From positions 1 through 38,462 of IMG/VR virus record IMGVR_UViG_3300020045_002418: DNA of 38,462 bases; one strand, given 5' to 3'. The translations under genes were made by a program, and so were the position numbers. Below are positions 5,051-24,018 of this stretch, in pieces. The DNA is from a virus. Its lineage: Duplodnaviria; Caudoviricetes. The number at the start of each line of letters is the position of its first letter. Positions within the stretch are counted from its first letter, which is position 1. The notes beneath the pieces are model-generated. The model searched no databases. It was not told the DNA's origin and was given only the letters and a program-made list of their open reading frames with translations.

Positions 5051-5974
5051 ATGGCTTTATTTGACCGTGTAGCATCGTTAGCCGTTGGCAAGCCTGACGG
5101 TAAAGCCGTGGAGATTCGTGATCTACGGTTTTCGTTCTCGATTGAAAAGGGTTCGATTGATACGCCTAATTCGTGCACCTGTCGCATCTACAATTTAAAT
5201 AAAGACTCACGCGCTTTGGTCGAGACGGTTAACAACATCCTGATTTTGAAGGCTGGTTACAAACGCGACGTTGGCGAGATTACCATCTTCACCGGTACAG
5301 TCACGCGTGCTTTGACTCGCATTGAAGGCGCTGACTCTGTAACCGAGTTGGAAATGTCAGACGGTGGCGCTGAATACAAAGACACAAAGACTTCTTTCAG
5401 CTTTGCTCCGGGTGTATCTGCACAGCAAGTTTTGAGCAACATTGCCGCCACTTTTAACCTGCCTATTAGACCATTGCCAAAAGAGATATCCACTAAGACC
5501 TATCCTGACGGCTTCGCCTTCATTGGCCGGTCACGCGAAGCCATGAAAAAGGCTTGTGACTTTCTTGGCCTTGAATGGTCAATCCAGAATCGTGAATTGC
5601 AGATCCTTAAACAAGGCAAGGCAGTTGATATGCAAGCCTTCGTGCTATCGCCTGATACCGGGTTGATTGAGTCACCAGAATCAGAGCATAAGATTTACTC
5701 AGAAAAGACAGCCGCTAAAAAAGGATTCACAGAGAAGCAAAAAGGCGTGCGCGTGACTTATGGCGAGACCGAAGGCGGCAAGAACGAAAAGAAACTAGAA
5801 GTCCAAGGCTACCGCGTTAAAAGCCTTTTACAGCCCGCATTGCAGCCGGGTGGATATGTTCGCTTGGATACCCGTGGAATTGATAAAGAGTTTTTCAGGG
5901 TTGAAACCGTAACCCATTCTGGCGATACTCACGGCGCTGACTGGTTTTCTCAGTTGGTGTTGAGATACGTGTAA
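5051..5974 (+). CDS. Baseplate hub protein
   Basis: 307 aa, 'DLRFSFSIEK...PNSCTCRIYNL...LKAGY', 'WSIQN', 'PDTGLIESPE', 'HSGDTHGADW'. Confidence 0.75.
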   Translation: MALFDRVASLAVGKPDGKAVEIRDLRFSFSIEKGSIDTPNSCTCRIYNLNKDSRALVETVNNILILKAGYKRDVGEITIFTGTVTRALTRIEGADSVTELEMSDGGAEYKDTKTSFSFAPGVSAQQVLSNIAATFNLPIRPLPKEISTKTYPDGFAFIGRSREAMKKACDFLGLEWSIQNRELQILKQGKAVDMQAFVLSPDTGLIESPESEHKIYSEKTAAKKGFTEKQKGVRVTYGETEGGKNEKKLEVQGYRVKSLLQPALQPGGYVRLDTRGIDKEFFRVETVTHSGDTHGADWFSQLVLRYV

Positions 5975-6074
5975 TGGTGGGGTGGCCGGTACTGATTTCC
6001 GGCATGGCTTCTTTCTGTTGCTCAAGACAACATGGTCTTACCTGACTAGCGCATCAGCCTGCGCATTCGCCCCA
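5975..6074 (-). ncRNA. C4 antisense RNA-like cloverleaf RNA (P1 c4 / Rfam C4 family)
   Basis: The minus strand reads TGGGGCGAATGCGCAGGCTGATGCGC...GCCGGAAATCAGTACCGGCCACCCCACCA. The GCGC-AGGCTGAT-GCGC and GCCGG-AAATCAGTA-CCGGC hairpins match the C4 consensus as I recall it. Terminal stem and encoded CCA end. Confidence 0.8.
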
Positions 6075-6079
6075 TAAAT

Positions 6080-6670
6080 ATTGATGATGTCTCCGACTTT
6101 ACTGGAGAACGCGTTTATCGTGACCCTCGCGGTTTCGATGCATCTCTGCCGATCTTGGTAAAACGCTTCACATTATTGGGTGCCGGGAACCCCCAGCATT
6201 GCCCTCACCATCAATCATAAGCCCTGACTTTACCCATACCAATTAAAACATGGCAAGGCTCATGATTGATAGCCGCATGGTTTCCACATGCGCCCACTTC
6301 GCTTTTAAGTCTGCGTGTCCAAGACTTTGATGGTTGCCGATTACGCCGTTAAGCGTTCTTGCGTCCGTTTGTTTACCCGTGTACTTTGGCAAACGTGTAC
6401 TATCTATACCAAGCCATCAAGTAAGCGGGCTGGGCTTGATTCCAGCTAAGTTGCATTACGGCATATTCCACGGTTTTGTTGTGCGGTTTCTCCCCGCATC
6501 GAATTTGGCTCTAGAACCATTAACTACTCTCGCTAAAGAAGCATCAACTTACTGCCACGTTGCGTGTCCATCCACGCCGCCGCTTACTTGATAGCTGCCA
6601 ATTACGTTGGCAATTCGGCTACCTGATAACCTTGTATAACCGGGTGCGCATCGGCCTATGGATTGAAGTT
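6080..6670 (-). ncRNA. Putative multi-domain structured RNA upstream of the C4 RNA
   Basis: Long stems 6580-6595/6413-6428 (16 bp), 6254-6273/6207-6226 (20 bp), 6206-6215/6080-6089 and 6410-6420/6327-6336. Most non-Watson-Crick positions resolve as G-U pairs only on the minus strand. No credible CDS. Confidence 0.6.
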
Positions 6671-6696
6671 TACAGCCATTTCACTAATAAATTCAA
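6667..6696 (-). promoter_or_regulatory. Putative sigma70 promoter for the ncRNA locus
   Basis: Minus strand TTGAAT-18 nt-TAAACT in an AT-rich patch, back-to-back with the spike promoter. Confidence 0.45.
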
Positions 6697-6698
6697 TT

Positions 6699-6726
6699 TT
6701 GTCAAAATAAATTTATGGGCTAAAAT
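6699..6726 (+). promoter_or_regulatory. Putative sigma70 promoter for spike/baseplate genes (leaderless)
   Basis: TTGTCA-16 nt-TAAAAT; ATG at 6734 lies 7 nt downstream with no Shine-Dalgarno. Confidence 0.55.
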
Positions 6727-6733
6727 GTGTTAT

Positions 6734-7420
6734 ATGGCAGAAAATAACGACTTTATCAGCGCACTAAAAAGCATGGTAGACGGTCGTCTGCATGAAATCA
6801 ATACAAGCCTGCCGGGTGTGATCACTGGTTACGCCAATGGCCGCGCCAGTGTGCAGCCTACGCCTAAACGACGCTTCGCTGATGGTGATGTCTTGACATT
6901 CCCAATCCTGCAAAACGTGCGGGTTTGCTGGCCTAGCTTTAGTGGCGGGTCGGCGGGTGTTAAGGGGCCGATTAAACCGGGTGATAAGTGCCTTTTGGTG
7001 TTTGCACAACAAGCGGTTGACGGTACGGATGATGCTCGCCGGTTTGATATTTCAGACTCTTATTGCATCCCGTGCGACCTTGGCAGTGCTGGCGCTGGTG
7101 ATAGTGGCAATAATGCCGACTTAACGGTGTTTTACGGGCCTGCGTCTATGCGCCTTACCGCTGGTGGTGCTTTGCTGATTACAGCGCCGGGAGGGGTCAC
7201 TATTGAGACGCCTAGCACGACTAATACCGGGACACTAACGACTCAAGGGCTTTTGTCTTATATGGCTGGCCTTGCTGGTGTTGGTGGTGGGGCCGGATCT
7301 ACGATTAGCGGTGAACTCACTCAAACGGGTGGCGATTTGTCTAGTAACGGCATCACGCTTGCTACTCACGTCCACAGTGGCGTGCAGTCTGGGCCATCTA
7401 ATACAGGGACACCGGTTTGA
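6734..7420 (+). CDS. Baseplate central spike (Gp138 / gpV-like)
   Basis: Real start is probably ATG 6734 (MAENNDFISAL...). 'INTSLPGVI', 'PIKPGDKCLLVFAQ', 'RRFDISD' and a C-terminal iron-binding HxH motif 'THVHSGVQSG'. Confidence 0.85.
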   Translation: MAENNDFISALKSMVDGRLHEINTSLPGVITGYANGRASVQPTPKRRFADGDVLTFPILQNVRVCWPSFSGGSAGVKGPIKPGDKCLLVFAQQAVDGTDDARRFDISDSYCIPCDLGSAGAGDSGNNADLTVFYGPASMRLTAGGALLITAPGGVTIETPSTTNTGTLTTQGLLSYMAGLAGVGGGAGSTISGELTQTGGDLSSNGITLATHVHSGVQSGPSNTGTPV

Positions 7421-17192: not shown

Positions 17193-18850
17193 CATTCTGT
17201 TTTACTCCAAACTCTATCAATCACGTTAAAAAATTTACCGTTCTTTTTGTGGCTTATCATGCTTGGTGGCTTTCCATTGGCAAGGTCAAAGGCGCATTGA
17301 TCTAGATCTTCGCTGACCGTTACGCCTGCCCGTTTAGCCATGTCTGCAACCGTTTGCCTTGCTTTTATCCCCGCGTAGTTGGTATGGTTGACTGCGTGAT
17401 ATTCCACAATCGCCGGGTTTGACAGTCCGCCATAATAACGGACTTGCAGCATATCTAGGCCACTGGTGCGGCTTGTGTGCTTTTTCCACGCCCAGCTTGT
17501 CACCTGCATTTCAGTGGGTTCGATGCCAAGAATATCATCGTTTCTGAGATAGACTGATTTTTCTTTAATTTCAGGCGGTGGAAATTCATGGCCGCAAGCT
17601 TCGCAGGTGCGAGACTGTACGGCGCATATTTCCTCGCAGTGCGGACATACCTTGGTTGGTGCAGTGCCTTCGCCTTTGCGTGCTTTTGTAGGCGGCACGA
17701 TGGCTGTAACAGGCCCGTGCTTCGCCACATTTCCAGCGAAGTCTAATACCTTACAGCCATTGGGTTTAGCGCCGTTTTCCATAGCTAAAAAACGATCTTC
17801 CAAAACATCAAGGTCATATCCTTTGGCATAGACTGGACGCATACCCCTAACCGCACATTGCAAGAATTTACCCGGTGATTCTGTTGGGTTGAGAAACACA
17901 ATCAAGTCAATCAATGGGTTATCGTAACCAGTGGTTAACTTTCCAACAGAAACAATGCAAGTCAACTCGCCACGTTTGTGAGCTTCGATTCTCTTATCAC
18001 ATTCACTATCAAGAATTCGCCCGTGAACTGAAGCGGCCTTGATTCCGCGTTCAACTAACAATTCAGTGATATGGTCACAATGGCTGATACCGGTGCAAAA
18101 CACCATCCAACTTTTACAGTCTTCAGCTCGTTGGATTGTTTCGTTTACGGCTCTAATGTTATTGTCGTGTGTGTCTATTGCACGCTCAAGCGCACCGGCT
18201 ACAAACTCATTGCCACGATGTGCCACGCCTTCGGTGCTTAATGTGAGTGCCGTGTGCTTGCTTCTTAATGGTGCAAGATACGCATCATTTAACAAGTCTT
18301 CAATGTTGACTGGTTCGATGATGTCTTTAAATATCGCTTTGTCACCATCGGTTATCATCCCTTGTCCAAGCCGATATGGTGATGCTGACAATCCAACAAA
18401 ACGAACTGATGGATTAATTTCCATTAGTTCGGCCATGAATTGACGGTACTGTCCTTCCTCTTCGTTGGATATGGCGTGAGCTTCGTCAATTAGGCATATG
18501 TCAATATGACCCAATTGCTTTGCACGCTTTGCCACTGAGCCAATACCGGCATACGTTATAGGCTCGGTCAGGCACCGTCTATTCAACCCAGCCGAATAAA
18601 TGCCCATTGGTGCATTAGGCCAAATTACACGTAGTTTTTCAGCATTCTGAGCGATCAGAGTTTTACTATGGACAAGCATCAATACCCTCGTACCCGGCCA
18701 ATTTTGCAAAGCATCTTTGACAATGGCCGCGATAATCACACTCTTACCGCTACCGCCTGGAAGGCACAAACAGGGGTTTCCGGTTTCATTGTTTTCAAAC
18801 CATTCGTAAAGTGCTGTTACGCTGTTTGTTTGATAATCACGCAGCTTCAC
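17192..18850 (-). CDS. SF2 DEAH helicase (RadD/YejH-like) with C-terminal zinc finger
   Basis: 'LRDYQ', 'PGGSGKS', 'IDEAH', 'LSASPYR', 'LTTGYD', 'CPHC...CEAC'. Confidence 0.9.
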   Translation of the reverse strand: MKLRDYQTNSVTALYEWFENNETGNPCLCLPGGSGKSVIIAAIVKDALQNWPGTRVLMLVHSKTLIAQNAEKLRVIWPNAPMGIYSAGLNRRCLTEPITYAGIGSVAKRAKQLGHIDICLIDEAHAISNEEEGQYRQFMAELMEINPSVRFVGLSASPYRLGQGMITDGDKAIFKDIIEPVNIEDLLNDAYLAPLRSKHTALTLSTEGVAHRGNEFVAGALERAIDTHDNNIRAVNETIQRAEDCKSWMVFCTGISHCDHITELLVERGIKAASVHGRILDSECDKRIEAHKRGELTCIVSVGKLTTGYDNPLIDLIVFLNPTESPGKFLQCAVRGMRPVYAKGYDLDVLEDRFLAMENGAKPNGCKVLDFAGNVAKHGPVTAIVPPTKARKGEGTAPTKVCPHCEEICAVQSRTCEACGHEFPPPEIKEKSVYLRNDDILGIEPTEMQVTSWAWKKHTSRTSGLDMLQVRYYGGLSNPAIVEYHAVNHTNYAGIKARQTVADMAKRAGVTVSEDLDQCAFDLANGKPPSMISHKKNGKFFNVIDRVWSKTE

Positions 18851-19839
18851 CCCACTACCCTCGCATCAAACTCACTAAACTTCTCACGCACGCCACTCGC
18901 GCACGCTTTCCAATTAGCGACAATCTCACGGCTTAAATAGCCTTCTGGCGCATTGTTTATAGGTCCTTCTTTGGTCAACCAGATCACGCCAGCATCAGAG
19001 CCTTGCATATCCCAGTTCGGCGTCATGTCAGGGTGCAAAATATGGTTATCGCAACCTGCAAGTTGTGCATTAAGGTCTGGAATTGTCATTTCCCAATAAG
19101 AGCATTCCCATGTTCCATCTTTCATAGCTGTGCTAAAACAACACGTTCTACAGTTCACTTCTTTTGTGAGCTTAGATCCGTGGCATAGGTCGTGAGCACT
19201 GCAATAGCGACACTCGAACCACGACGAATCCGTGCTAATTCCAGCGGGTGCCCGGTCAGCTTTAACGATACGATGCCCGCGTTTAATGGCCTTTTCAGCC
19301 ACGTCAGCGTTAAATGGCACTTGCTCTATGTATAGCTCATCCGAGTCCTTGCATACCATTACAAACAGGGCATGATTGATCTGTTTTCCACTCATATAAA
19401 GTTGGCATTGCACAAAATAGGTGAAGTTGGCTTTCTGCAACCCGTCTTTTTGCATGGCCTTAAACTTCTTTAGGCTTGCCGTCTTAATCTCTAGAATGTG
19501 TTTTTCTTTCGAGTTACCCGGCACGCCTGACTCAATAATGCCATCAATAGAACCTGATACATGGCATCCAAAGTCAACCCGGCTTTGATTGGTGCCAGTG
19601 CTGACAATTTTCATTCCAATGTTTTGCAAGTCTGAAACTACCGTCCGCTCCTCCAACTGGCCACGGCGAAACAAGCGCAGGATTCGACCGGGAAACTTTT
19701 CAATCACGGCAAAGCGAAATGAATACCAAAGGTAACGATCACACGCATGGCCAAGTTGTGAGCATCCCATATGGCCGCGTGGGCCTTCTTGGTTTGATTC
19801 GTGGTGAGCGTCGATAAGCTCTTGAATGTCTTGTGACAT
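18847..19839 (-). CDS. Cas4-like PD-(D/E)XK exonuclease
   Basis: 'LGHACDRYLWY', 'GSIDG', 'LEIKT', 'QCQLYM', 'CRYC...C'. Start probably ATG 19839 after RBS aagga. Confidence 0.85.
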   Translation of the reverse strand: MSQDIQELIDAHHESNQEGPRGHMGCSQLGHACDRYLWYSFRFAVIEKFPGRILRLFRRGQLEERTVVSDLQNIGMKIVSTGTNQSRVDFGCHVSGSIDGIIESGVPGNSKEKHILEIKTASLKKFKAMQKDGLQKANFTYFVQCQLYMSGKQINHALFVMVCKDSDELYIEQVPFNADVAEKAIKRGHRIVKADRAPAGISTDSSWFECRYCSAHDLCHGSKLTKEVNCRTCCFSTAMKDGTWECSYWEMTIPDLNAQLAGCDNHILHPDMTPNWDMQGSDAGVIWLTKEGPINNAPEGYLSREIVANWKACASGVREKFSEFDARVVG

Positions 19840-19891
19840 TGTTTGTCCTTTTTGTTGATAGAAAACCCGCTGATTAGGCGGGTTATACATC

Positions 19892-20938
19892 TTAATCCAT
19901 TAAGTCAGGTTCTGACGCAAACATTGATTCCTGTTTGAAATTGTTTTCACCTTCAAACCGCTTGGAGGCCAGTGATAGATTGATCTTTGCCTGTTTGAAG
20001 TAGCTGTCTTTTAGCTCGATTCCGATGGCTTTACGGCCCATTGAAACAGGGCTGTAAACCTCAGAGCCTACGCCCATAAACGGCGTAAGAACGACTTCAC
20101 CCGCATTGCTATACAAGTCAACCAAGCGGTCAATAACGTCCAATTGAAGCGGGTGTACGTGCTTTTCGTCGTCCTCTTCTTTGGAGTCACGAAACGGCAA
20201 CACGTTGTCAACGCGAATGTCATCCCATACGCTTGACGCATAACGCTGCCAAATGTAGTGTGATAGTTTGTTGCTCTTCGGGTCTTTGTGGTCGTGAAAT
20301 GTATTGTTCAAATACTCCCACAATTCATCCTCGTTAAACTTTGACTCGTTGGCATTGTTGAATGCACGCAAAATGTTAGGCAGGATTGGAGTCTCTCCAG
20401 CATAGCGCTTCAAACCGCTTGGATGCGTAACTGGCACTGCGTTGTCGCCTTTCTTGGTAAACACCAAAACATAATCAGGCATGGCCGTGAAACACTGTGT
20501 AGAGTCTTCGACAATCAGTTTATGCATAAGGCTTTTAACCATCGTCCGCATACGCACTTTCAATGGCTCTTTCCATATCGTGATTCGGTTACGGTACTGG
20601 AAACCGTATTTTTCATGCAATCGAATAATCTCGTGTGGGAAGTCCCAAAGGCGGCATGAGTTGTCGAAAACGTCAGTACAGTGGACTGCATTTACCCGGC
20701 CCGGCTTTGTCACTCGCGCCATTTCGGCGATAAGGAACTCATACTGCTCTAAAAATTGCTCTTTGTTTTCGCAGTTGCTGAAATCGCGCTCACTAGAACT
20801 GTAATTGTAAAGTCCTGCAAATGGCGGGGAATAAATAATCAAGTCAATCGACTCATTAGGAATTGTTGGCAACACTTCCATGCAATCGCTGTTATAGATA
20901 GCGTACTCTGGCATGATGATCTGGTCTTTTGTTTTCAT
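19892..20938 (-). CDS. Amino-DNA methyltransferase (N4-C/N6-A, beta class)
   Basis: Catalytic motif IV 'YSPPF' precedes SAM-binding motif I 'LTPFMGVGS'; 'GIELKDSYF'. Confidence 0.88.
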   Translation of the reverse strand: MKTKDQIIMPEYAIYNSDCMEVLPTIPNESIDLIIYSPPFAGLYNYSSSERDFSNCENKEQFLEQYEFLIAEMARVTKPGRVNAVHCTDVFDNSCRLWDFPHEIIRLHEKYGFQYRNRITIWKEPLKVRMRTMVKSLMHKLIVEDSTQCFTAMPDYVLVFTKKGDNAVPVTHPSGLKRYAGETPILPNILRAFNNANESKFNEDELWEYLNNTFHDHKDPKSNKLSHYIWQRYASSVWDDIRVDNVLPFRDSKEEDDEKHVHPLQLDVIDRLVDLYSNAGEVVLTPFMGVGSEVYSPVSMGRKAIGIELKDSYFKQAKINLSLASKRFEGENNFKQESMFASEPDLMD

Positions 20939-22305
20939 GATAAAAATCCCGGTAGTTGAATGGATTGGTTGAACTCTTTTTTAGTGAAACTAAAATCGCG
21001 GTTTGCAGCTTCGACAAGGTTGGAATAAAGCTCAATGGCCTTTTGTGTCTTTTGCTCCAAAGCCTCTAAAACACGCTCTTGGCCTTCGCTAATAACCATG
21101 TCACATACTACCTCGCTTTTCTGGCCAAATCGCCAAAAACGGCGTATTGATTGGTAATATTGTTCATAGCTCCATGTTGGGAAAAACACGGTGTGATTGC
21201 AGTGCTGCCAGTTCAAGCCCATTGAAGTCATGCGGGCCTTTGTAATTAGGCGCTTAATGTCACCACTGGCGAATGATTGCAGAATGTCCTCTTTTTTGTC
21301 GATTGACATACCGCCGATAATCTCAACGGCGTCACGGTCAAGCTCTGACAATAACGCGCTTTCGTCATTCAGGTTGCACCAATAAACGGACGTTTTACCG
21401 TCTGCCAATTGCACAGCTTTCTCACATCGTTCTTTGACTGTAAGTTTCTGTTCCTCGCGCACTTCCGTCATGGATTTTGCTGGCATGGCAAACAATGAAG
21501 CCTGATCGTCTATGCACCATGTTTCACTGTTATGCACCATGTGCTTATTCAGGTGCAATGCTGGCAACTCATAATTTGAGTCGCTAAACCCTAGGTCTGA
21601 TGGATTCTTTACCATAATAGACCACTGGTTTACCCATGCGAAAAAGTCACGTTCAGCGTGAGGCTTTAGGTAGAACTTTTCGCCAATGTTGCGATTGTTG
21701 CTGTCCGCACTGTTCTGGTTCGACTTAAAGAACTTTGTCAGCATATCCATGTAACCCATGTACCCCAACGCCTCGGAGCTATTGCCAAGCTCAATAAAAT
21801 CATTCGGGCTAGGTGTGGCTGTACTGAGAAAACGATACGGCACGCGCTTGATAAACGCCACGATAGCGTCACGGGTTTTGCCAGCGAAGTTCTTTAAAAT
21901 CCCTGATTCGTCAAGAATTACGCAAACGAAATCGTCAGGATTAAGCAAGTGCAAACGCTCATAGTTGCAAACGACAATGTTTTTTGTGAACTTACCGTCT
22001 TTGCTGTGCTCAATGTCATCTACTCCAATGCGTTCAGCTTCTTTGATAAACTGGAAAGCAACGGCCAAAGGCGTGAGAATCAAAACGCGCTTATTAGTCT
22101 TGCGGATGATGTTTTCAGCAAGCGTAATGCTGATTAATGTCTTACCCAATCCAGTGTCAGCAAACACCCCGATACGGCCCTTTCGTAGTGCCTTCGTGAT
22201 AATGTGTTGCTGAAAATCAAACGCTGATTCAGGCATCCAAATTGGCTCGAATCCGAAGTTGCCCGTAGTGTGTGTTTTGTTTTTTATGAAGTCGGCATAA
22301 CTCAT
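20935..22305 (-). CDS. SNF2-like SF2 helicase/ATPase
   Basis: 'DTGLGKT', 'NYERL', 'LDES', 'TATPSPND', 'GLNWQHC', 'YEQYYQSIRRFWRFGQ'. ATGA-coupled to the methyltransferase. Confidence 0.88.
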   Translation of the reverse strand: MSYADFIKNKTHTTGNFGFEPIWMPESAFDFQQHIITKALRKGRIGVFADTGLGKTLISITLAENIIRKTNKRVLILTPLAVAFQFIKEAERIGVDDIEHSKDGKFTKNIVVCNYERLHLLNPDDFVCVILDESGILKNFAGKTRDAIVAFIKRVPYRFLSTATPSPNDFIELGNSSEALGYMGYMDMLTKFFKSNQNSADSNNRNIGEKFYLKPHAERDFFAWVNQWSIMVKNPSDLGFSDSNYELPALHLNKHMVHNSETWCIDDQASLFAMPAKSMTEVREEQKLTVKERCEKAVQLADGKTSVYWCNLNDESALLSELDRDAVEIIGGMSIDKKEDILQSFASGDIKRLITKARMTSMGLNWQHCNHTVFFPTWSYEQYYQSIRRFWRFGQKSEVVCDMVISEGQERVLEALEQKTQKAIELYSNLVEAANRDFSFTKKEFNQSIQLPGFLS

Positions 22306-22326
22306 AACAATCCTTTTTTTTTGTTG

Positions 22327-22349
22327 AAAAAACCCACCTAAGCGGGTTT
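22327..22349 (-). terminator. Intrinsic terminator after ssb, overlapping the next promoter
   Basis: Minus strand AAACCCGC-TTAG-GTGGGTTTTTT. Confidence 0.65.
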
Positions 22350-22367
22350 CTTATTGTAGCTCAAAAA

Positions 22368-22886
22368 TCAGCGTTTTGCCCAAGGTGGCGACTTAGCCGC
22401 TGGTGCTGGCGTTGCCTGTCGTTGTGGTGCTGGCGCTGATTGACGTGGTGCAGGGGCTTGCGTAGGTGATCCGCCTGTCAGTGGCTTGTAAGCCTGCACA
22501 TTGTTGCCCGCCTTGTACTCGCCTTGTGCTTCTTTAATCGCTAACTTAACGCAAAGACTACCACCTAAAAGCTGGTCGGTATCTTCAAATGTAGCCGCCT
22601 GAATTCCGAGAATTCGCAGAATGTCACCCAAATGGCCGCGTCCAATAGCTTCAGCTTTTTGGCTTGGGTTTTGAATGTTGAGCATAGAAAATACAATGCG
22701 TCCCATATGAGTCGGTCCGTCAACAATCATTTTCAGATTGATATATGTGCCGTCGCCTGCCTTGGTTTGCTTAAGGTCAGCGCCGTCGATTGTTACGCTG
22801 TATTCACCGGCTGGAAGTGGTGAAAAGTCACCGTCGCCAGTTGATGCCAAGTCTTCGTCCGTAAAACTCATTCCGATATGTGCCAT
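22368..22886 (-). CDS. Single-stranded DNA-binding protein (DUF669-type)
   Basis: 'FSPLPAGEY', 'TKAGDGTY', 'DTDQL', Pro/Ala tail ending PPWAKR; next to Sak4. Confidence 0.8.
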   Translation of the reverse strand: MAHIGMSFTDEDLASTGDGDFSPLPAGEYSVTIDGADLKQTKAGDGTYINLKMIVDGPTHMGRIVFSMLNIQNPSQKAEAIGRGHLGDILRILGIQAATFEDTDQLLGGSLCVKLAIKEAQGEYKAGNNVQAYKPLTGGSPTQAPAPRQSAPAPQRQATPAPAAKSPPWAKR

Positions 22887-22891
22887 TTTAT

Positions 22892-23281
22892 TTATTCCTT
22901 GTTAACAGTAGTGATTGAAAATGATGGCCGCGAAGCCGTTGTGGTGATTGCTTTTGAGAGCTTGTTTCGCGCATTTTCAGATGCGTTTTTCCATGATGTA
23001 AGGTTGATTTCAGGTTTCCAGCGAAACAATGTGCCAAGTTGGTCTTGTAACCCTTCTTCGCTTGCAATTTCCTGAACCAGATCAGCGTCAACCTTGCGAT
23101 TAAGCCGGGTTGTAACCTTGACCGTGAAGTCAGATAGTTTAGTCGTTTGAACGGCGTCTAAACGGTCGTCAACCTTTAGGGCTTCGCTTAGTTGGTCTTC
23201 GATAGATCGGCGTCGCTCTTGCGCTTCGTGTTCTTCAGACTTGGCTTTTAGCCATAGTTTTGAGAGTTCTGAGGTGTTCAT
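22892..23281 (-). CDS. Hypothetical protein of the Sak4 module
   Basis: 'WLKAKSEE...RRSIED...LFRWKPEIN...AITTTASRPSF', between Sak4 and SSB. Confidence 0.7.
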   Translation of the reverse strand: MNTSELSKLWLKAKSEEHEAQERRRSIEDQLSEALKVDDRLDAVQTTKLSDFTVKVTTRLNRKVDADLVQEIASEEGLQDQLGTLFRWKPEINLTSWKNASENARNKLSKAITTTASRPSFSITTVNKE

Positions 23282-24018
23282 AATACGGCTTTCACCATTG
23301 CATCATTAAACGCGCCCCAATTCAGCGAAAAACTATCAGGCAAGCTGTATCGGTTCTTTGCCAAGTAAGCGGGCTTCTCTTGCGTGAAGATCATGCGTTC
23401 ACCGTTGCTAATAGCACGTCCGCGTTCTTTGTTGAAGCCTAAGTCTTCTTTTTTCACCACTGTTTTATAGTTGGCGAAAAATACACAATCAGCCCATTCC
23501 TGAATAATGGCGCTTGATCGTGTCTGAAGCTTTGGTTGATATCGGTCATAACTGTCTACCTCTGGACTGTCAAAACGCTTAATCTCACTATGCCCAATGA
23601 GAATGACGTTCATTCCTTTATCGTTTCGCAGTGCGTTAAACCCATCGAGAATGTCGCGCCACTTGTTCGCCAGATACATTGCCGCCCGTCCATAGGCAAG
23701 CTCTTTAGCGTCGTGCTCGGCTTCAATCTCGCTGTTAAGCAAGTTCTCAAGCCAGTCCACGGTATCGAGTGCCACGGTCTGGTATTCGTGCTCCTCTGTG
23801 TAAAGCGTCTGAATCATTTCCATCACGTCAGCGCTACTGGTAGCAATAGGGAAGTGCGCCACGTCCAAGGCATCTAGGCCGTCTTCAGCACAAATGAAGA
23901 TCGGGTTTGGTGCTTGGCTTGCAAATGTACTTTTACCAATTCCATGCGTGCTGTAAAGGAAAATGCGAGGGGGGCGAAGGTTTTTACCCTTCTTGATAGA
24001 GCTTAAGTCAATAGCCAT
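23278..24018 (-). CDS. Sak4-like AAA (AAA_24) recombinase
   Basis: 'YSTHGIGKSTFA', 'LDTVDWLE', 'LIGHS', 'YDRYQPKL', 'AKNRY'. Confidence 0.88.
   Translation of the reverse strand: MAIDLSSIKKGKNLRPPRIFLYSTHGIGKSTFASQAPNPIFICAEDGLDALDVAHFPIATSSADVMEMIQTLYTEEHEYQTVALDTVDWLENLLNSEIEAEHDAKELAYGRAAMYLANKWRDILDGFNALRNDKGMNVILIGHSEIKRFDSPEVDSYDRYQPKLQTRSSAIIQEWADCVFFANYKTVVKKEDLGFNKERGRAISNGERMIFTQEKPAYLAKNRYSLPDSFSLNWGAFNDAMVKAVL

Follow-up and report, generated by a model that had tools for sequence, protein, structure and literature searches.

A cassette-like array of structured RNA modules, some of them tRNA-shaped, on the minus strand between two baseplate genes of a myophage

The C4 and CI RNAs of phages are matured by RNase P, and phages T4 and T5 encode stable RNAs of unknown function that bring the array described here to mind. 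The bacterial Y RNA YrlA carries a tRNA-like domain on an extended closing helix, and in the engineered tRNA scaffold a recombinant RNA is inserted at the anticodon position. To our knowledge, designs that combine a constant tRNA-shaped frame with near-unique inserts come mainly from RNA engineering. In the accessible text of PMC4131195, phage DS6A is described as encoding a TLD-only RNA, and a similar molecule as inhibiting tmRNA. The UG27 ncRNA arrays, as presented in the available part of bioRxiv 10.64898/2026.09.22.753630, consist of units of one family, about 150 nt each, beside a reverse transcriptase (RT) and two accessory genes.

The stretch of DNA analysed here, called the window, is a myophage contig of 38,462 nt (38.5 kb, 77% complete) whose hub protein is 46-48% identical to the hubs of phiEt88, Meifeng and Dibbivirus phages. 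The original prediction placed an antisense array of structured RNA between its hub and spike genes, in a gap without a credible coding sequence. That gap measures 759 nt (5975-6733), and domains A to D, the linker hairpins and a tRNA-shaped unit ending in CCA at 5975 are all present where they had been placed (Table 1). The longest open reading frame fully within the gap has 85 aa, lies on the plus strand and has no PHROG match. A coding reading was rejected: no ORF is conserved, and the spike frame, if extended upstream to a TTG, runs through a swappable module. Hub and spike are directly adjacent in phiEt88 and Pantoea phage AAM37, so the gap in the window is an insertion. Four relatives cover 26-61% of the bin holding the array versus 79-100% of its flanks, a variability comparable to that of the tail spike and early accessory regions. 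We consider it very probable that the gap is a real minus-strand non-coding cassette operon.

Table 1. Positions of the array modules, candidate promoters and neighbouring genes in the window.
Feature	Position	Strand	Remarks
Baseplate hub gene	5051..5974	+	phrog_196, E 6e-72; stop codon adjoins the CCA end of the array
E1, tRNA-shaped scaffold	5975..6074	-	Acceptor 6073-6068 with 5984-5979, plus U6074-A5978
E1, inner parts		-	D-like arm 6064-6049; insert 6048-6004; T-like arm 6003-5985; CCA 5977-5975
D, Y-slot module	6082..6212	-	7-bp acceptor-like helix, 6212-6206 with 6089-6083; 5' strand common to hairpin C
C, X-slot long hairpin	6207..6273	-	67 nt, 20-bp outer helix
E2 ("linker"), two-hairpin family	6274..6326	-	Invariant loops and junction; sits exactly between two boundary words
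B, Y-slot module	6328..6418	-	Acceptor-like helix, 6418-6412 with 6335-6329; 5' strand common to A
A, second tRNA-shaped scaffold, X slot	6413..6595	-	16-bp closing helix (6595/6413)
A, inner parts		-	D-like arm 6577-6562; 115-nt insert 6561-6447; T-like arm 6446-6429
5' leader module, swappable	6597..6660	-	Short hairpins; 97% identical copy in 1/15 related arrays
Candidate sigma-70 array promoter	6667..6696	-	-35 at 6696-6691, 18-nt spacer, -10 at 6672-6667; score 8/12
Candidate promoter restarting the tail operon	6699..6726	+	Score 10/12; -10 ends 7 nt before the spike ATG
Gene in baseplate spike position	6734..7420	+	phrog_20516 on C-terminus; hub-then-spike order in phiEt88 and AAM37
Recombination module	18847..24018	-	Cas4/YqaJ-type exonuclease 18847-19890; SSB 22368-22886; Sak4-like annealing protein 23278-24018

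Dense folding of the minus strand had also been predicted. That strand is indeed favoured over the whole region (z -2.7 versus -1.3 for the plus strand), but the strength is only modest: a genome-wide scan gives the array the single best 150-nt tile (z -6.0, domain C) and places it outside the six best 600-nt runs. Folding energy was dropped as proof because it is too weak in the genome-wide scan, and the case therefore rests on covariation and comparison. The second most stable tile of the genome (9575-9724, minus strand, z -5.9) lies within a baseplate gene. Six of the seven non-Watson-Crick positions in the four closing helices are G-U pairs on the minus strand, as expected from the prediction for the long stems; the seventh is a C-A in B. 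Where tRNAs neighbour members of the array's RNA families (9/75, 7/51 and 17/51 loci), they invariably share the strand of the RNA. Since neighbouring tRNAs and other modules are always co-stranded, the minus strand appears to be the functional strand.

The candidate minus-strand promoter of the original prediction is weak and falls under the scan threshold, yet it recurs at the same offset in 9/9 close arrays, with three -10 variants, and conservation falls just past it. Its plus-strand counterpart before the spike has an identical -10 at the same offset in 10/10 complete arrays; the spike mRNA is likely leaderless, with no obvious ribosome-binding site, and this promoter would compensate for the insertion. 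There is no U-tailed terminator within 5700-6900 and no convincing minus-strand terminator between the array and position 760, so read-through into the hub gene is possible. Being antisense to the late operon, the array might, with such read-through, act as a C4-type antisense RNA or as a brake on tail genes, two roles that had been suggested for it. We regard this as very improbable. RF01695 gave 0 matches at E<=10 in the genome and 69 bits for the C4 control of Gifsy-1, so the unit at 5975-6074 is not the C4-type RNA it was thought to be, and c4 a1/b1 target sites (RF03163) were found neither in the window at the gathering score nor in 5800-6900 at E<=10. No coding sequence overlaps the array, whose longest match in its own genome is 14 nt versus a shuffle maximum of 16, with blocks of 7-8 nt lying below detection. 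Across five genomes the longest antisense matches are within the shuffle range, and matches of at least 12 nt are slightly above shuffles in three (7 vs 3.7, 6 vs 3.1 and 12 vs 6.0). Moreover, the spike has its own promoter, and the same families are found far from tail genes.

Scaffold E1, which ends the array, has an acceptor of 7 bp and a T-stem of 5 bp; its D-loop pairs with its T-loop, and a hypervariable insert replaces the anticodon arm. In the window its ends have U at -1, G at +1, a G-rich 5' end and a 3' ACCA. Among 145 anchors, 115 gave T-arm parses, with 108 distinct inserts, and 30 did not. Acceptor base pairs 1-7 form in 96-108 of 108 copies (66 at bp 8, 41 at bp 9), and bp 5 is paired in 107/108 copies (0.44 expected if its two sides were independent). 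The D-loop and T-loop covary in 130 copies (93/106 with canonical loops, 12/13 and 2/2 with two variant loops, plus matching singles); for E1 as for A, columns fixed by the search patterns cannot show covariation. E1 thus shares with tRNA a 7-bp acceptor stacked on a 5-bp T-stem (108 copies), but it has a variable insert of 19-175 nt in place of an anticodon arm and lacks a canonical T-loop, and CCA is encoded directly after the acceptor in only 22/130 copies. Its 20-nt core occurs in an estimated 2000 IMG/VR stretches (at least 121 listed) and about 250 GTDB stretches (at least 120 listed), mostly in Proteobacteria among 80 titles of matches listed. The whole architecture is complete in 84 of the 120 GTDB matches listed, with 45 different acceptor sequences. 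Two E1 copies (GTDB loci L398-L517) use an acceptor sequence typical of scaffold A, which suggests that the two scaffolds may recombine or have a common origin. A hammerhead-like match (28 bits, below the cut-off) was seen within an E1 insert at L016:681-759, minus strand. IsrJ (RF01393) was considered as a piece of E1 and rejected, as the weak match at L015 rests mainly on the terminator; Gifsy-1 has IsrJ, and the E1 core is absent from it at 3 mismatches.

Scaffold A is a family of 62 viral stretches, studied in 55 anchors, of which 51 were parsed (50 distinct inserts) and four had no T-arm parse. Base pairs 1-16 of its helix form in 37-50 of 50 copies and bp 17 in 21, and covariation is seen at helix bp 7-15 (bp 8: 47/50 vs 0.37), D-stem pair 5 and T-stem pair 3. 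The two-hairpin family E2 has about 160 stretches and lies frequently within phage tRNA clusters; in 28 aligned copies chosen by hand, 93.8% of cells are paired and both sides change in 7 of 11 pairs. Covariation among homologues, which the prediction had set as its test, was therefore found in the E1 acceptor and elbow, the A helix and the E2 hairpins. An HDV-like, pistol or riboswitch identity for E2 was dropped, as no Rfam model matched. ARAGORN and Rfam, the checks proposed at the outset, found no tRNA, tmRNA or described family in the window, and over the array region Rfam scans at gathering and permissive E-values gave just two miRNA-type chance matches. Nor does any Rfam family cover the scaffolds in three sets of related loci (20, 13 and 20), in agreement with the view that domains A to D belong to no named family. 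Three abundant phage RNA families, E1, A and E2, are missing from Rfam 15.

The inserts of E1 and A are nearly unique: 158 of them form 142 clusters, 129 of which are singletons, and the inner fold of the A insert in the window has no homologue in the related arrays (0/15). They fold barely above shuffles (mean z -0.5 and -0.3, with much the same on the reverse complement), which would also fit neutral filler, and a T-loop-like word in 10/145 of them is an enrichment for tRNA T-loop scraps. One explanation is that the inserts are base-pairing sRNAs directed against host mRNAs, with the tRNA frame merely stabilising them. Their hypervariability, partly single-stranded state and length range would suit such a role, as would the known presence of sRNAs in the late leaders of prophages (IsrJ and IsrI in Gifsy-1). 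However, sRNAs of this kind sit poorly with the lack of a U-tailed terminator around the array and with inserts that are mostly singletons and share no common seed, and we consider the explanation rather unlikely.

A search with the hub gave 15 loci, of which 13 close ones reach the gap (nine complete arrays and four cut by contig ends), and a scan with hairpin C added two further arrays, for 16 arrays including the window. In G002, a 51-kb record, the hub region occurs at both ends (L351 and L353), probably by assembly overlap; ARAGORN calls a tRNA-Lys(ttt) of 91-92 nt outside the array at G001:C1:25598-25689 and G003:C1:34617-34707. Modules are gained, lost and moved between relatives. The window has the order leader, A, B, E2, C, D, E1, L139 has C, Y, E1, Z, and L135 and L145 have three units. 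C is the most constant module of the clade, present in 15/15 relatives; E2 is found in 7, the body of B in 5, the E1 insert in 2, the leader in 1, and the A insert and the body of D in none. One tRNA-like Y module follows A in L138 and C in L136; it uses the shared strand as its acceptor and scores 32.4 bits against the tRNA model, above the cut-off. The suggestion that the array might be one large ornate RNA of the GOLLD or ROOL kind could draw on its size (about 690 nt), its phage origin and its association with tRNAs, but a single RNA is not supported by modules that come and go independently, by an order that varies freely, by gap lengths of 517-1084 nt in complete relatives or by the absence of an Rfam match. 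We give this suggestion next to no weight.

All C sequences found, 15 viral stretches, come from the clade of the array; six metagenome pattern matches outside it lack either the hairpin or the array context and look like chance. C folds at z -5.9 on the minus strand versus -3.2 on the plus strand. The D pattern matches three other viral stretches. A overlaps B and C overlaps D, so the modules cannot all fold simultaneously. A recurrent hairpin with a GGAAAGAC loop region precedes X modules in L136, L138, L139, L142, L143, L145, L332 and L333, and accompanies E1 and A elsewhere on the same strand (4/75 and 7/51 loci).

The arrays follow a common boundary grammar. Each boundary is a triplet, with a complementary strand in the middle between a first and a second left word. 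This middle strand closes the upstream X hairpin (10-21 pairs; A, C and others) and at the same time provides the 5' side of the 7-bp helix in the downstream Y module (B, D and others), so that long hairpins (X) and tRNA-shaped modules (Y) alternate with one 8-nt strand in common, the 5' acceptor strand of Y. Both partners, upstream and downstream, were found at both thresholds for 27/34 boundary strands; the remaining seven, on inspection, comprise three contig ends, two non-boundary words and two strands with a variant 3' word. Folding of the window precursor predicts upstream pairing with P 0.88-1.0 and downstream pairing with 0.0. The strand common to A and B, and that common to C and D, make each hairpin a likely gate for the tRNA-shaped RNA that follows it, and C is predicted to be an RNase III-type gate for D. 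Gating upstream of E1 is also seen in unrelated phages, in 33/186 loci versus 5.4 for shuffled and 7.4 for swapped upstream regions; the reverse complement gives 18/186, so part of the excess is not strand-specific.

At the other end of the array, CCA abuts the hub stop codon in 13/14 arrays that include the hub end. This terminal CCA is supplied by three different end modules, one of which is a real tRNA with a CAU anticodon that ends six arrays; a terminal module termed Z ends in CCA in L138, L139 and L145. Comparison of the arrays places the module swaps at the boundary words and the terminal CCA. Strict repeated boundary words, with E2 inserted exactly between two of them, could also point to an integron-like cassette system, with the structures serving as recombination sites in single-stranded DNA. 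We think this highly improbable, since tRNA geometry, CCA ends, G-U pairs and co-orientation with tRNAs all indicate RNA, and neither an integrase nor a reverse transcriptase was recognised in 47 proteins of the window and 44 further ones, 22 of them specific to the complete relative G002 (the scan took in ORFs of 70 aa or more that do not cross 20-kb cuts of G002).

Our leading reading, which we hold tentatively, is that the locus is a set of swappable RNA cassettes with its own promoter, cut into small RNAs whose inserts act as counter-defence decoys. That the array is processed into separate RNAs is by itself probable, and comparison of the arrays supports the predicted minus-strand polycistronic precursor for several tRNA-shaped RNAs. 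The array would be transcribed from its own minus-strand promoter, and in the precursor the common strand is predicted by folding to pair with the upstream hairpin, leaving Y unfolded until X is cut or melted. RNase III may then cut X, allowing Y to refold and to be released by RNase P and 3' trimming. The tRNA-shaped frames would protect and display the fast-changing inserts, and these would serve as decoys against host RNA-targeting defences. Cassettes may be exchanged by phage Sak4-type recombination, with the constant arms as short homologies; the recombination module of the window would be the candidate machinery, and host defence the presumed selective force. The argument for decoys is indirect, drawing on spike-like variability, a sigma-70-type promoter, mimicry of the elbow and CCA, and the lack of a cognate protein. 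Against it, the families also occur in the leaders of prophages, a setting in which decoys make less evident sense. It is possible, if rather doubtful, that these arrays are an RNA-only counterpart of gene-cassette arrays in proteobacterial phages, in which E1 and A are tRNA-scaffold vectors with diversifying inserts, release is ordered and hairpin-gated, recombination uses shared helices, and anti-defence needs no cognate protein. If the inserts are under arms-race selection, they would form a pool of phage counter-defence RNAs invisible to protein-centred screens, offer a testable role for the non-coding DNA left unexplained in phage tRNA clusters and operon leaders, and be a source of new stable RNA scaffolds.

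The families extend well beyond the clade of the window, and one of them has relatives in Pseudomonas phage D3, P1-like plasmids and BASEL phage Bas78. Sites of E1 or E2 include an early leftward leader, the interval between Q and holin genes, and places among tRNA genes. The structural operon contains an antisense E1 in Bas78, IME207 and Klebsiella phage 6991, an independent parallel to the window. One enterobacterial copy has matches in 1032/5426 complete E. coli genomes (about a fifth), 818 of them over 80% of its length. In the late leader of phage CUS-3 (L009), the annotated "boundary sequences" bsq3 and bsq4 (776-1016 and 1308-1371) flank an E1 match, fitting a role of constant stretches as recombination anchors. 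Such settings bear on another explanation, that the scaffolds are cis-acting processing or stability signals and recombination anchors of leader and tRNA transcripts, with inserts that are mostly neutral filler. The families do occupy tRNA clusters and early and late operon leaders, and the weak folding of the inserts and their T-loop scraps fit as well. However, the array in the window has neither a tRNA nor a downstream gene on its own strand, and yet has been retained together with its own promoter; the compensatory changes that separate the window from L135 in the E1 insert and in B likewise speak against filler. We judge this explanation unlikely, while taking it seriously.

A tmRNA-tag-like frame (10 codons, AND start, AA-stop end) lies 184-649 nt upstream of E1 on the same strand at L524:1145-1180 (Bas78), L010, L027, L130, L209, L500 and L502, and by eye at L527 and L528. 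ARAGORN called no tmRNA in the tag-frame loci scanned, and weak tmRNA model matches occur in L010. The frame is possibly an mRNA-like-domain-only tmRNA mimic. The arrays might accordingly be a host-takeover kit that mimics or titrates housekeeping RNA machinery (tRNA enzymes, RNase P, SmpB/trans-translation). In keeping with this, six arrays terminate in a real tRNA, the tag-like frame occurs in enterobacterial arrays (7 distinct by pattern), and the accessible text of PMC4131195 pairs a TLD-only phage RNA with tmRNA inhibition by a similar molecule. Housekeeping targets change slowly, though, and would leave the near-unique inserts unexplained, and the window has no tag frame by the same pattern; titration seems to us quite unlikely. 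As to expression, in the Pseudomonas prophage L046 contigs from RNA libraries of three studies cover only 663-933, 684-909 and 745-975, around E2 and E1, and a fourth library gives a deep contig (500-1087) and a shallow one upstream; as the runs were selected for holding the stretch and the contigs give no strand, ends or level and can stem from DNA, they are a weak hint that E2 and E1 are expressed. Of four runs of raw RNA reads, three gave no placed read and one gave 14 partial reads, outside the array.

The analysis goes beyond the original prediction in the design of constant scaffold and hypervariable insert, the shared-strand grammar, the cassette shuffling and the breadth of the families. 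Full-text searches found no description of the array or its core motifs; the accessible part of PMC2864571 is included, and most subscription papers fall outside this scope. For Fremin 2023 (PMC10690425; 8495 DNA-virus models), there was no term match in the supplement part searched, and the accessible text does not describe a scaffold-insert array. Its alignments and models may contain fragments of these families, which, if present, would lower the novelty of single motifs. The Pas sRNAs, as far as the available text of PMC13192938 presents them, are unrelated. By these searches of the literature and Rfam, the array, for which the comparative support is strong, is previously uncatalogued.

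Among described systems, the C4 antisense RNA (RF01695) and P4 CI are likewise small tRNA-like phage RNAs, and RNase P processing may be common to both, but the array has no anti-repressor operon, and the variable insert and the D/T loop pairing set E1 apart. In phage tRNA clusters (D3, Meifeng, P1-like plasmids) the layout is also polycistronic, with E1 and E2 co-stranded among the tRNA genes, and the array would work much as a phage pre-tRNA operon does; the array in the window, in contrast, is tRNA-free, and its units lack an anticodon arm, overlap by a common strand and are exchanged as cassettes. As in tmRNA and TLD-only RNA, an acceptor and T arm are kept while other sequence takes the place of the anticodon arm, and E1 in the window has a G-rich 5' end and an ACCA 3' end. 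Unlike tmRNA, E1 has a paired D-stem and no conserved G3-U70, ARAGORN and Rfam are negative, and tag-like frames appear only in arrays of other phages. The UG27 RT ncRNA arrays, in the available text, are also phage-borne and variable, with structurally conserved, sequence-diverse units, whereas the units in the window are of several families rather than repeats of one and no adjacent RT was recognised. Integrons have a tyrosine recombinase and gene-bearing cassettes, and GOLLD and ROOL one conserved multi-domain fold that matches a model; none of these was recognised in the array or among the scanned proteins. Module A resembles YrlA in its tRNA-like domain on an extended closing helix, but Rfam gives no match at E<=10 and no Ro60-like gene was found among the scanned proteins. 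Like the engineered tRNA scaffold, E1 and A carry their insert at the anticodon position; unlike it, they are natural, have a non-canonical elbow and hold about 140 distinct inserts in our sample.
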